Shown: positions 18,698 through 21,626, counted from the first letter of the stretch. The stretch is 49,792 bases of DNA from Deltaproteobacteria bacterium (GCA_016930215.1 JAFGHH010000387.1:1-49792); one strand, 5' to 3'. The notes: a model not told the origin generated them from the letters alone. Made by a program: numbers and translations.

Positions 18698-18991
18698 ATG
18701 GACACACAAGATCTCGAACGGAGGCTTGAGGAGTTCCGCGCGGCGCACGCCGAGTCGGTCGAGGCGACCGAGGGGCTGGCGACGCGTGTCGGGCTGCGAG
18801 AGCGGAGCGACGACTGGTTGCGCCGGCTTCCGGCACCGGTGGCGGACGCGGTCCGCCGGGCGGCGGGCGACTGGGCCCGGCGCTTCGACGATCCGTCCGT
18901 CGAGCGCCCGACCGAGCGGGTCGTCGCGCGCGCGGAGGCTCGGGGCCGGATGTCGCCGATGGACTTCGTCTATCGGACGATGGGGAGGTGA
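18698..18991 (+). CDS. Small helical protein (97 aa); candidate chaperone of the downstream tip/filament protein
   Basis: GGGAGG RBS; first gene of a tightly packed operon; function inferred from position only. Confidence 0.55.
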   Translation: MDTQDLERRLEEFRAAHAESVEATEGLATRVGLRERSDDWLRRLPAPVADAVRRAAGDWARRFDDPSVERPTERVVARAEARGRMSPMDFVYRTMGR

Positions 18992-18994
18992 GTC

Positions 18995-19825
18995 ATGACG
19001 GTTGGCAGCGTAGGTGGCGCAGGCGCAACGACGGGGGCCGGGCAGGTGTCTCACGAACTGGGAGACATCTCCTTCCTGGTTGCATTGCTTCAGCTCGAGA
19101 CGCTCGACATCGAGATCGGCGACCGGTTGACCGAGATGCAGCGCCTCAACGCCGTGCGCAAGGCGTACAACGAACGGATTGCCGAGCTGCAGCGGCTGGT
19201 CGACCAGTGCGGGACCTCCGGCCAGGTCGAGATTCCCGTGGCAGCGGCCGGGCGCGGCGACATCGTATGGGATCCGGAGGCGAACGGCGGCGCCGGTGCG
19301 GCGGTTCCGGCAACGGAGGGAAGCGACCTCCTGGGGAATGGAAGCTACGCCGTCCATCGGGCCGACGGCACCCCGGCCTGCTGGGGGGACGTCACGGGGT
19401 CGCCCGAGGACGACGGGCCGGACGAGGACGCACGGGTCCACGGCGGGGAGGCCCGCTTTCCCTATTTCCATCTGCCGCAGTGGCTGATGAACCGTTCGTT
19501 CCTGATCGGCCTGGACGGGGAGGTCCTGGGCGATCGGAGCCCGGAACGAACGGGACGGATCGCCACGAGCGACATCGAGACGGCCCAGCGATATGCCGAC
19601 CAGCTCGGGGGTAGCGTGACGACCACGGTCACCCGCGACCAGTTGCTGGGGGAGATGCAGTCGTTGCGGGACAAGGTCGACAACCTCTCGTCCGACGCGG
19701 AGATCGGGATGCTGGGGCTCAATCGGCTGCTCAGCCGCCGCAACCAGGTCCTGCAGCTCGCCAGCAACGTGATGTCCTCCCTGCACCAGACGGCGATGGG
19801 GCTGATCGCCAACCTGAAGGTGTAG
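18995..19825 (+). CDS. Bsp22/EspA/SseB-like type III secretion tip or filament protein (SctA-like)
   Basis: Gly/Ser/Thr-rich N-terminus with no signal peptide; N-terminal coiled coil; C-terminal DNLSSDAEIGMLGLNRLLSRRNQVLQLASNVMSSLHQTAMGLIANLK matches, from memory, the amphipathic C-terminal helix pattern of Bsp22-like proteins. Confidence 0.65.
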   Translation: MTVGSVGGAGATTGAGQVSHELGDISFLVALLQLETLDIEIGDRLTEMQRLNAVRKAYNERIAELQRLVDQCGTSGQVEIPVAAAGRGDIVWDPEANGGAGAAVPATEGSDLLGNGSYAVHRADGTPACWGDVTGSPEDDGPDEDARVHGGEARFPYFHLPQWLMNRSFLIGLDGEVLGDRSPERTGRIATSDIETAQRYADQLGGSVTTTVTRDQLLGEMQSLRDKVDNLSSDAEIGMLGLNRLLSRRNQVLQLASNVMSSLHQTAMGLIANLKV

Positions 19826-19827
19826 CG

Positions 19828-20286
19828 ATGGCAACGGCGGCGGAAGAGCGCGCGCTGCGGGCGGCGATCTCGGCGCTGGCGAAGCTCGGGTTGGCCGAGG
19901 CAGCCGGGTGGCGGCCGGCCGAACGATCCGCGCTGGTACGGCTCGGCCGGGCGGGACTACAGCGCGGCCACTGGGTCGCAGCCTGCGAGCTGCTCGAGTA
20001 CGCGACGCTGCTCGACCCCGACCGTGCCGAGACCTGGGAGCTGGTCGCCGGGGCGCGGATGGCCGGTCGTCGTTGGGACGACGCGCTCGCCGCGCTCGAG
20101 GTCGCCTGGACGCTGGAACGTTCCTGGCGCCGGGCGGCCCTTGCAGCACTGTGTTGTGCGCGGCGGGGAGCAGCTGCGGAGGCCAAGCGGTGGTGCGAGG
20201 CGGCGCGGGCGCTCGCGCCGGCCGAGGCGGACGAGCTGCGCCGCCTGGAACGGGCGCTGTCGAGCGCCGAGGAGGGGCTGTCGTGA
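19828..20286 (+). CDS. TPR protein; candidate class II (SycD/LcrH/SscA-like) translocator chaperone
   Basis: 152 aa; TPR-like helices including ACELLEYATLLDPDRAETWELVAG; lies between the tip-like and translocator-like genes. Confidence 0.6.
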   Translation: MATAAEERALRAAISALAKLGLAEAAGWRPAERSALVRLGRAGLQRGHWVAACELLEYATLLDPDRAETWELVAGARMAGRRWDDALAALEVAWTLERSWRRAALAALCCARRGAAAEAKRWCEAARALAPAEADELRRLERALSSAEEGLS

Positions 20287-20963
20287 GTGTGGAAGCAATG
20301 CGGGGGTTGGCGCCGCCGTGGCCGTCCACGGCGAACGACGAAGCGGCGCCGGCGACGGTCGAGGTTGCGACCGGCGTCGCCGTGCCCGGCACGGGCGACG
20401 TCGTGGCGGACCGGGCACTCGAGCTGCTGATGGCCGCCGAGGCGGATCTGGCCGACGACGGCGTGCACACGGCCGCGTCGGCGGTGCGGCAGGCGACCGA
20501 GCGGCGGATCGAGCAGCGGGCCAAGCTTCGCGAGCTGATGCGCCGGATCCAGGAGGCCCAGCAGAACCGGTCCTGGTGGCAGAAGTTCTGCGATGCGTTC
20601 GGATGGGTCGGCAAGATCCTCGGGGCGATCGGCGGAGTGGTTGCCGTGGTGGCCACGGCCGGCATCGCCTTGCCGGCCGCGCTGGGCATCGGCCTGGCGG
20701 TCGGCGCCGGCACGGCCGGGCTGACCTCGGCCCTCGGCCGGCTCGGCGTCGGCGCGGCCGAACGGGACGCGGCGAACCTGTCGGCCGACAGGTTGCAGGA
20801 AGAGGGGAACCTGGCCGCCTGGGAGGAATACGGTCGTGACGGCCGGGCGCTGGCCGAGGCCCTGGTGGGACTCGAGTCGGCGATGCGGGAGCAGGCGCTG
20901 CGATGGATCGGGAACGAGGACGAGGCGCGCCGACTCGGCGCGTCGATGGTCCTGGATCGGTGA
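20283..20963 (+). CDS. SctE-like (YopB/IpaB/SseC) major translocator, short form (226 aa)
   Basis: GTGA overlap with the TPR gene stop and a GGAGG RBS; coiled coil followed by SWWQKFCDAFGWVGKILGAIGGVVAVVATAGIALPAALGIGLAVGAG (long hydrophobic hairpin), then more coiled coil; no signal peptide. Confidence 0.65.
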   Translation: MSVEAMRGLAPPWPSTANDEAAPATVEVATGVAVPGTGDVVADRALELLMAAEADLADDGVHTAASAVRQATERRIEQRAKLRELMRRIQEAQQNRSWWQKFCDAFGWVGKILGAIGGVVAVVATAGIALPAALGIGLAVGAGTAGLTSALGRLGVGAAERDAANLSADRLQEEGNLAAWEEYGRDGRALAEALVGLESAMREQALRWIGNEDEARRLGASMVLDR

Positions 20964-20975
20964 GGGAGGTGTGTG

Positions 20976-21626
20976 ATGTCGATCGGGAAAATCGGTTCGG
21001 GCGGAGCGGAGGCGGGCTGGTCGCTCGAGCCGCCGGAGGCGGCGGAGCCGGCCGCGGCGTCGAACGTCTCGCTGGACGAGGTGGCGACGTTGATGGTGGA
21101 GGCCGACCGCGAGGAACGGAACGGAGCGCGGGCGGCGCAGCGGGCGCTGGCCGAGGCGGCACGGGCCGAGCGCCGGGCGGCGATTCACGCGCAGCGCGCG
21201 GCGGCGGCGGACGCCTTCGACTCGGCGATCCTGCAAGCGGTCGTGGGCGGACTGACGGCGGTGGCACAGGGCGTGGCGGCGGTGGGCGCCGCCGAAGCCG
21301 CGACGGCCGTCGAGGGTGCGGCCGGCTCGGCGGCCGGGGACGCGGCGGCGGGGGTGCCCTGGCATCGCTGGGTCGAGATCGGAGCCGGGGCCTTGCCGCA
21401 CGCCGCGCCGTTGCTCGACGTCCCGGCGCGCCGGGCCGAGGCGAGCCGGATCCGGTCCCAGGAGTACCAGGATGCGGCGGCGTTCCTGGAGGACCGAGCC
21501 CGGCAGGCAGGTGACGACGCCGAGGCGGCGCGGGCGGCGCGGCGCGCGCACGTGGAGGCCGTCGGGCGGGCGCTCGACTCGATCGAGCAGGGCCGATCGA
21601 TCGCCATCGGTCGGGAAGCGGGGTGA
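20976..21626 (+). CDS. SctB-like (YopD/SseD/BopD) minor translocator (216 aa)
   Basis: GGGAGG RBS; MSIGKIGSGG N-terminus; Ala-rich coiled coil, one central hydrophobic stretch (SAILQAVVGGLTAVAQGVAAVGA) and a C-terminal amphipathic helix. Confidence 0.55.
   Translation: MSIGKIGSGGAEAGWSLEPPEAAEPAAASNVSLDEVATLMVEADREERNGARAAQRALAEAARAERRAAIHAQRAAAADAFDSAILQAVVGGLTAVAQGVAAVGAAEAATAVEGAAGSAAGDAAAGVPWHRWVEIGAGALPHAAPLLDVPARRAEASRIRSQEYQDAAAFLEDRARQAGDDAEAARAARRAHVEAVGRALDSIEQGRSIAIGREAG

Follow-up and report, generated by a model that had tools for sequence, protein, structure and literature searches.

We analysed a 49,792-nucleotide stretch of DNA from a Deltaproteobacteria bacterium (GCA_016930215.1, JAFGHH010000387.1:1-49792; hereafter the window), which is the entire contig C521 of a metagenome-assembled genome (MAG) of 6.4 Mb in 611 contigs, 84% complete and with 3.3% contamination. 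We propose, with a probability that we put at roughly two in three, that five adjacent genes at positions 18698-21626 form one operon encoding a divergent type III translocon module, whose products would be exported by an atomised, secretin-poor type III secretion system (T3SS). This proposal draws on the remote likeness of the fourth gene product to the major translocators of the SseC/SctE family, on the likeness of the third to translocator chaperones, on a gene order that is shared with known translocon operons and kept in relatives, and on the presence elsewhere in the genome of single, scattered genes for a predicted non-flagellar type III export apparatus.

All five genes lie on the plus strand of a window with a G+C content of about 72% throughout, and they follow one another at distances of 3, 2, -4 and 12 bp. 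Gene 1 (18698-18991) encodes a hydrophilic, helical protein of 97 amino acids; gene 2 (18995-19825) a 276-residue coiled-coil hairpin protein, a candidate tip or filament protein (SctA-like); gene 3 (19828-20286) a 152-residue protein with three tetratricopeptide repeats (TPRs) that resembles class II chaperones; gene 4 (20283-20963), from a GTG start, a shortened, SseC/SctE-like protein of 226 residues; and gene 5 (20976-21626, with an alternative GTG start at 20973) an alanine-rich, 216-residue protein that is a candidate minor translocator (SctB-like). These features were read from translated open reading frames (ORFs), and all five frames were also picked by a gene caller based on codon usage, for which 311 long ORFs of the same genome served as training set; it placed the starts of genes 2 and 4 later, and the family alignments of these two genes favour the longer starts. 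None of the five N-termini contains a hydrophobic, Sec-like segment in Kyte-Doolittle windows. An initial annotation, made from the sequence of the window, had described five tightly packed, co-directional genes without Sec signals, and the ORFs, the translations and the gene caller agree with its account of their direction and spacing. The architectures it listed, namely a coiled coil in the 276-residue protein, TPRs in the 152-residue protein, a hydrophobic hairpin in the 226-residue protein and one hydrophobic segment in the 216-residue protein, are also seen in models, hydropathy profiles and family scans.

Gene 4 is the best-supported assignment of the operon: judged by profile relationships, it is a shortened, remote member of the SseC/SctE family. 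A word-indexed search returned 10 relatives besides the query, all of them metagenomic, and 8 of the 11 family members, query counted, give weak matches to the SseC family PF04888 when taken singly (best E value 2.4e-5). When a profile of these 11 sequences was searched against 1.84 billion representatives, it retrieved 55 matches, 10 of them close and 45 distant; two fragments (62 and 43 amino acids) were dropped, and PF04888 was present in 33 of the 43 distant matches that were scanned, the best at 6.1e-36. The positional ortholog in one related genome, G112 (relatives' genomes carry G numbers here, and contigs C numbers), exceeds the curated cut-off of PF04888, at 33.1 versus 30.2 bits (E 5.9e-8). 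In hhalign comparisons, the gene 4 family aligned with EspD (E 6.6e-4) and with YopB (E 0.0056), and the two alignments coincide at the helix that enters the first hydrophobic segment, where they have a common F-G-W. Kyte-Doolittle analysis places the hydrophobic stretch of gene 4 at residues 102-151, about 50 residues that could form a hairpin, and the AlphaFold2 model predicts helices at residues 38-126 and 147-225, with a predicted template modelling score of just 0.30.

The product of gene 3 shows a likeness to the class II chaperones of translocators, its best natural full-length structural matches being PcrH, SycD and AcrH. A profile built from eight gene 3 orthologs and searched against the PDB matched these proteins at 1.6e-14, 6.3e-12 and 9.7e-12, respectively, and each alignment runs as one stretch over nearly the whole length (for PcrH, residues 27-143 to 12-129). 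CesD was aligned by hhalign at an E value of 3.4e-4, and Pfam and NCBIfam scans gave weak TPR matches together with HrpB1_HrpK (E 0.18) and SctY (15.6 bits; cut-off 70). When the first 100 residues of gene 4 (alignment of 11 rows) were paired with gene 3 (8 rows) in a complex prediction, the score was 0.02 (mark 0.32); the run was made with no controls, and its score says nothing either way about binding.

By position and architecture, and with weak signals in its sequence, gene 2 is a candidate for the tip or filament protein of the proposed module. In an alignment of 18 sequences, its N- and C-terminal helices are near-invariant and its middle, or insert, is variable; the AlphaFold2 model (predicted local distance difference test 75.6) has long helices at residues 17-71 and 214-275 around a small alpha/beta insert. 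A language-model search placed an EspA-named cluster at 0.93 with 201 shared features (3 of the 30 matches), and 27% of the members of that cluster carry PF03433. A needle family matched one of 16 gene 2 members at E 0.37, and the gene 2 profile returned nothing below E 0.2 among PDB sequences. The C-terminal helix of gene 2 recurs in a 159-residue protein encoded on another contig (C592:4649-5128; L057:1150-1629), with a match that extends right to the C-terminus (hhalign E 6.1e-5). This C592 protein has no Pfam family, needle included, and BLASTP against YscF gave nothing; it may represent a further needle- or rod-like component at the distal end of this system. Weak C-terminal matches to gene 2 also occur in ORFs of about 100-310 amino acids in four relatives (G001, G002, G004 and G009).

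Gene 5 likewise fits a minor translocator by position and architecture, with weak signals in sequence comparisons, and is a candidate for that role. It starts 12 bp after gene 4, a position directly behind the major translocator gene that its counterparts in G001, G004, G005, G198, G228 and G112 also keep, and it has one hydrophobic run in the Kyte-Doolittle profile, at residues 83-106. The word-indexed search found seven relatives, and the G112 ortholog matches PF04888 at E 0.0018. At the other end of the operon, gene 1 sits where the sseA/lcrG small chaperone or regulator genes sit, and its position is held by orthologs of 61-98 amino acids in G003, G001, G004, G005, G228 and G112.

A further feature connects three of the five genes. 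A common N-terminal motif, M-[ST]-[VI]-[GE]-x-[VIM], with G or S usually next, opens the products of genes 2, 4 and 5 and is encoded at 18995-19018, 20283-20306 and 20976-20999, respectively. The motif is kept within each of the three families, the next 20-30 residues vary, and the G112 counterparts of genes 4 and 5 have looser versions of it. Among 5168 genes genome-wide, one has the motif at its called start. It is possible that this shared N-terminus is an export or recognition signal. Other possible starts with the motif were found at C558:1461-2123, C474:9130-9888 (minus strand), C565:5115-5489 (minus strand) and C211:4724-7537; these ORFs may represent further substrates or have matched by chance. 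When every in-frame start was considered, the motif turned up in 34 ORFs, for the most part inside other genes, and this set was unusable as an effector list.

The five-gene order first read from the window is kept across three families. A first profile detected gene 4 in 6 of 41 relatives' genomes, own genome counted, and a broader profile in 14 of the 301 genomes of the class, spread over five families. The closest relative, G003, is syntenic with the window over 10 kb and has genes 1-4 intact up to the end of its contig, and G005 has all five genes intact, adjoining recA. The same-genus genomes G001 and G004 carry genes 1, 3, 4 and 5 without gene 2 in a different neighbourhood, where the clusters (L016, G001:C122, 8891-11137; L015, G004:C135, 8538-10758) adjoin a metallophosphoesterase gene. 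On a separate contig of G001 (C81:59999-60505), a 170-residue frame encodes a short gene 2 homolog that has both terminal helices and no insert. Scanning 401 genomes of the phylum with PF04888 gave five matches, two of them above the cut-off, and the gene order of the window recurs at three of these loci, which belong to a different family within the class. In G228, cdnL is followed by genes for proteins of 61, about 215, 130 (TPR), 338 and about 270 amino acids; in G112, the proteins have 67, 265, 138 (TPR), 299 and 227 amino acids, with cdnL adjoining; and in G198, proteins of 200, 141 (TPR), 296 and 176 amino acids correspond to genes 2-5, gene 1 not having been looked for. When the families of the window were aligned by hhalign with the G112 proteins at the same positions, E values were 2e-4 for gene 4, 1.8e-4 for gene 2 and 6.9e-5 for gene 5. 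In a third family, represented by G007 and G009, genes 2 and 4 lie on one contig. The depositors labelled one relative as a Myxococcales bacterium and another as a Polyangiaceae bacterium, and an exact cluster look-up of the proteins of three relatives returned nothing.

The genes are real, and genes 1-4 evolve under purifying selection: in a comparison with their G003 counterparts, the ratios of nonsynonymous to synonymous substitution (dN/dS) are 0.27-0.36, equal to those of two neighbouring genes (0.28-0.29). This constraint argues against the idea that the operon is a decaying, functionless remnant of an ancestral injectisome locus, which we consider very improbable. A remnant would be in keeping with the shortness of gene 4 beside the 296-338-residue orthologs of the other family, with the absence of gene 2 from the G001 and G004 clusters, and with the failure to find secretin and needle families, as detailed below. 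Against it, all five frames are intact in the window and in G005, as are the four that fit on the contig in G003; the termini of gene 2 hardly change over the 18 aligned sequences; and the order of the genes has outlasted the divergence of three families.

The apparatus that would serve this module is dispersed. Our core-gene searches covered sctV, sctU, sctR, sctT, sctJ, sctN and sctQ together with the secretins. The whole genome contains one copy of each of the seven, on seven different contigs: sctV at C10:6857-8962, sctU at C412:1671-2714, sctR at C5:3681-4361, sctT at C229:29276-30064, sctJ at C208:39589-40287, sctN at C87:11042-12412 and sctQ at C17:13578-14663. Their neighbours include dnaJ, priA, ftsH and genes for an integrase-family recombinase, an epimerase, an MshEN-domain protein and an ion-transport protein, and scans of the flanks of six of the core genes found no T3SS family (the flanks of sctQ were judged from gene calls only). 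Separate contigs also carry sctV, sctU and sctR in each of five relatives from two families, G198, G228, G112, G004 and G005, although the G198 assembly consists of just 8 contigs. With the hrcV model, SctV reaches 701.3 bits, above the cut-off of 692.25, and with FlhA 630.5 bits, below the cut-off of 772. SctR exceeds the EscR/YscR/HrcR cut-off of 179 with 222 bits, and the models on which SctJ and SctQ score highest are injectisome ones; SctN, SctU and SctT are ambiguous. A search of seven genomes for the flagellar rod/hook family was negative, and in the control genomes the same search was positive. On these model scores, the genome encodes a predicted non-flagellar T3SS export apparatus, the core genes of which are dispersed singly. 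We found no description of such complete core-gene dispersal in the literature searched.

These results bear on how the position of the operon is to be understood. The initial annotation had stressed that it stood alone, with no T3SS core gene nearby, and all sct and secretin matches do lie on other contigs; what does not hold is that this isolation sets the operon apart, since all core genes found here are isolated. The separate location of the translocon-like operon reflects the layout of the whole system, each part of which is on its own. Three options had been put forward, and a detached translocon for a type III apparatus encoded elsewhere is now favoured among them. Export by a flagellar-type apparatus is unlikely, given the missing rod/hook family and the scores of SctV and SctR, which are best as injectisome types. 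A full, conventional injectisome elsewhere in the genome, which had also been envisaged, was not found: the core genes are isolated among housekeeping genes, and no SctC or needle family was detected.

Several results weigh against a translocon module. Taken alone, gene 4 reaches 18.1 bits on PF04888 (E 0.0022), below the curated cut-off of 30.2, and at 226 amino acids it is far shorter than the scanned PF04888 proteins and EspD/YopB (about 250-460 amino acids); compared with the 296-338-residue orthologs of G198, G228 and G112, it lacks the stretch after the first hydrophobic region. SctE/SseC translocators usually have about 300-600 amino acids and a further hydrophobic region, and gene 4 falls outside both. 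A six-frame PF04888 search of the genome itself gave nothing at E <= 1. For gene 3, an LcrH/SycD-type model was not among the matches of the NCBIfam scan, and designed and multi-repeat TPR proteins outscore the chaperones when the gene 3 profile is used. For gene 2, the hhalign comparison with EspA was weak (E 0.051, at the C-terminal helices) and gave no match to EscF or LcrV; a Pfam scan of 16 members found no consistent family and PF03433 in none of the 16; and a wide VIA fold search with the gene 2 model returned generic coiled-coil hairpins only, at Z scores of 9-11. In the gene 5 family, PF05802 (SctB2) matched 1 of 10 members (E 0.085; 13.7 bits, cut-off 26.5), and hhalign gave E values of 0.11 for EspB and 0.28 for YopD. 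Gene 1 had no family in Pfam and NCBIfam scans, and the protein atlas returned nothing for it at 0.9 or above. An SctC-type secretin was not found in the genome, which is 84% complete, and none of five relatives at least 90% complete had an SctC match above the cut-off (best 131.6 versus 238.45 bits). The co-occurrence of sctV with the operon is uninformative: sctV is present in 14 of the 14 genomes with a gene 4 match, but also in 268 of the 301 genomes of the class. Two secretins were found in the genome, PilQ in a pilMNOPQ-like row and GspD in a type II secretion row, both labelled from their neighbours. A search of seven genomes for the needle family PF09392 was negative, as it was in the control genomes.

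Seen against these results, the translocon interpretation of the initial annotation holds best for the 226-residue protein, through its SseC/SctE profile, and for the TPR protein, which is class II chaperone-like; the roles it gave to the 276-, 216- and 97-residue proteins draw only on position, architecture and weak signals. For the gene 2 model, Foldseek gave no match at E <= 0.001, the weak rows being flagellins, V-ATPase stalks and prefoldin, and for the gene 4 model it gave zero matches.

Two matches of gene 4 lie outside type III secretion. The sole PDB sequence match of the gene 4 profile below E 0.5 is haemolysin BL L1 (7nmq), at 1.1e-6, in the hydrophobic stretch, and the NCBIfam model HblD matches gene 4 at E 0.0045. 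Together with the presence of several adjacent helical proteins that bear hydrophobic hairpins, and with the lack of a detected secretin or needle that would complete an injection path, these matches raise the prospect of an alpha-helical, pore-forming toxin set, in principle ClyA/Hbl-like and independent of type III secretion, which would have its own TPR holder and be released by lysis, in vesicles or by another route. We consider this fairly unlikely. The Hbl match is confined to the Gly/Ala-rich hydrophobic stretch (profile positions 106-168), amounts to 16 bits against a cut-off of 650 and does not extend to homology over head and tail, whereas the predominance of the SseC family among the scanned distant matches of gene 4 (33 of 43) points to translocators. 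Nor would a toxin set account for a TPR protein that matches translocator chaperones end to end, for a gene order equal to that of lcrGVH-yopBD, or for a type III export apparatus in every operon-carrying genome.

The fold comparisons of gene 2 and the genomic neighbourhood of the operon suggest another possibility, that of a non-exported complex in the envelope or membrane of the cell's own body, involved in coiled-coil remodelling or scaffolding and functionally tied to cdnL. The VIA search with the gene 2 model ranked IpaB (residues 74-242) and the dynein stalk jointly first, and the model is as similar to PspA (Z 10.4) and to Vipp1 (Z 10.0) as it is to IpaB (Z 11.2). A cdnL/CarD-like gene lies beside the operon in the window, in G003, in G228 and in G112, and the export of the products of genes 2, 4 and 5 is itself a prediction. 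We regard such a complex as quite unlikely. Its fold matches are generic long hairpins, in a range common for helical models; a strong terminator separates cdnL from the operon; and in G001, G004 and G005 the operon is found in other contexts, with no cdnL match among the called genes. The likenesses of genes 4 and 3 to the SseC family and to translocator chaperones would also be left unexplained.

Under the translocon reading that we favour, the TPR protein encoded by gene 3 would act as a chaperone that keeps the hydrophobic products of genes 4 and 5 soluble in the cytoplasm, and the products of genes 2, 4 and 5 would be exported by the scattered non-flagellar apparatus of the genome (sctV, sctU, sctR, sctT, sctJ, sctN and sctQ). 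The gene 2 protein would then form, or be located at, the distal structure that serves as the platform for pore assembly. Gene 4 would provide an SctE-type major translocator with a two-helix membrane hairpin and gene 5 a second, single-pass translocator, and the two would insert into the membrane of a contacted cell and form a pore. Gene 1 may encode a small partner or regulator.

The arrangement of the operon has clear parallels in pathogens. The order of the Salmonella pathogenicity island 2 (SPI-2) genes sseA-sseB-sscA-sseC-sseD equals that of the window operon, and Pseudomonas has an equivalent of the Yersinia block in pcrGVH-popBD. There are further points of likeness to SPI-2 and to the fourth operon of the locus of enterocyte effacement (LEE4), in that gene 4 falls in the SseC family and aligns to EspD, gene 3 aligns to CesD and gene 2 has the EspA-named cluster among the three nearest to it in language-model features. 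Unlike in SPI-2 and LEE4, gene 2 has no EspA Pfam match (0 of 16 members), and lengths and sequences have diverged far; LEE4, with espA-espD-espB, also differs from the window operon in having no intervening TPR gene. A close parallel in layout is Yersinia lcrG-lcrV-lcrH-yopB-yopD, which, in the annotation of pYVe8081, consists of five genes in the same order and equally tightly packed; both blocks would encode, in turn, a small helical protein, a coiled-coil protein of the distal structure, a TPR protein, a major translocator and a minor translocator. In contrast to the Yersinia block, gene 2 has no detectable similarity to LcrV and gene 5 none to YopD, gene 4 has 226 amino acids where YopB has 400, and the window operon is not beside sctV or another apparatus gene. 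The hosts differ as well, Yersinia being an animal pathogen and the window belonging to the MAG of a free-living member of the Myxococcota.

Within the Myxococcota, the nearest comparison is with the T3SS*, or 'Myxo', systems of Myxococcus and other Cystobacterineae, which likewise have a Myxococcota apparatus and in which, as here, no dedicated secretin or needle family is found. By Abby and Rocha (PMC3459982), the 'Myxo' systems of Cystobacterineae are described as having no secretin, SctF, tip or translocon, with the qualification that homologs of tip and of translocon components, which evolve fast, were possibly missed. A 2024 review (PMC10849154) similarly describes an M. xanthus system without needle or translocon homologs and links M. 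xanthus-type T3SS* to contact-dependent lysis of prey. By analogy with this account, prey bacteria would be a plausible target of the module proposed here. Unlike the Myxo systems as these two sources portray them (clustered loci, no translocon homologs), the genome studied here has single core genes and a translocon-like operon. The non-flagellar T3SS of Chlamydiales is, according to PMC3459982, likewise not encoded in one locus; here, each of the seven core genes is on a contig of its own. A comparative study (PMC10196010) reports type III genes mainly in Myxococcales, and in two others (PMC11821767, PMC11509652) the T3SS was annotated by similarity to M. xanthus. We found no description of the operon in myxobacteria or Deltaproteobacteria in the literature searched; supplementary tables, such as that of T3SS genes in PMC11509652, might list some of its genes.

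Several observations concern the transcription and surroundings of the operon. The gene upstream (18040-18534, plus strand), which from its sequence we take to encode a CarD/CdnL-like transcription factor, has an uncertain start, a longer ORF beginning at 17779, and is 98% identical to its G003 ortholog. Between it and gene 1 lies a terminator-like hairpin on the plus strand (18574-18605), with a 14-bp stem that includes 10 G-C pairs and a T8 tail. The stretch scanned for terminator-like sites contained two, versus 1.3 expected by chance, and this is the long one; its 14 pairs are perfect, unusually long for a genome with 72% G+C, and it ends the cdnL transcription unit. Given this hairpin, the operon would have its own promoter within 18606-18697. 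When the regions upstream of the operon, the seven core genes and the C592 gene were compared for a common motif, no sigma-54-like site was prominent, and the 9-mers that recurred were G+C-rich only and present in 3 of the 9 regions. Sampled sequence words were nearly absent from two metatranscriptome runs of the same study. The next gene downstream (window positions 21776-23770) encodes, by translation only, a 664-residue protein; we read its N-terminus as signal-like and its C-terminus as OmpA-like, and it has many Asp-rich D-x-D-G-C-P-D repeats.

Our findings bear directly on the claim that myxobacterial T3SSs have no translocon, and the operon is a concrete candidate for the tip and translocon genes that may have been missed, in a different class of Myxococcota. 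Its proposed chaperone, its two hydrophobic proteins, the conserved N-terminal motif and the conserved C-terminal helix are all features open to testing. The dispersal of single genes may also help explain why T3SSs have been reported mainly in Myxococcales, if detection needed clustered loci. It is tempting, as a tentative idea that we hold at well below even odds, to extend this interpretation to a lineage of Myxococcota at the level of a whole class, free-living and probably predatory, with a fully atomised T3SS, no secretin of its own and a tip-chaperone-pore operon that has been kept. If this were true, the translocon would not be an adaptation to eukaryotic hosts that was added after the secretin, and would instead be older, or act on bacterial prey. 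The helix that the C-termini of gene 2 and of the C592 protein have in common would then mark an unrecognised family of distal needle- or filament-like subunits. Should the predicted export and pore formation prove true, both contact-dependent killing and the order of events in injectisome evolution would become directly testable.

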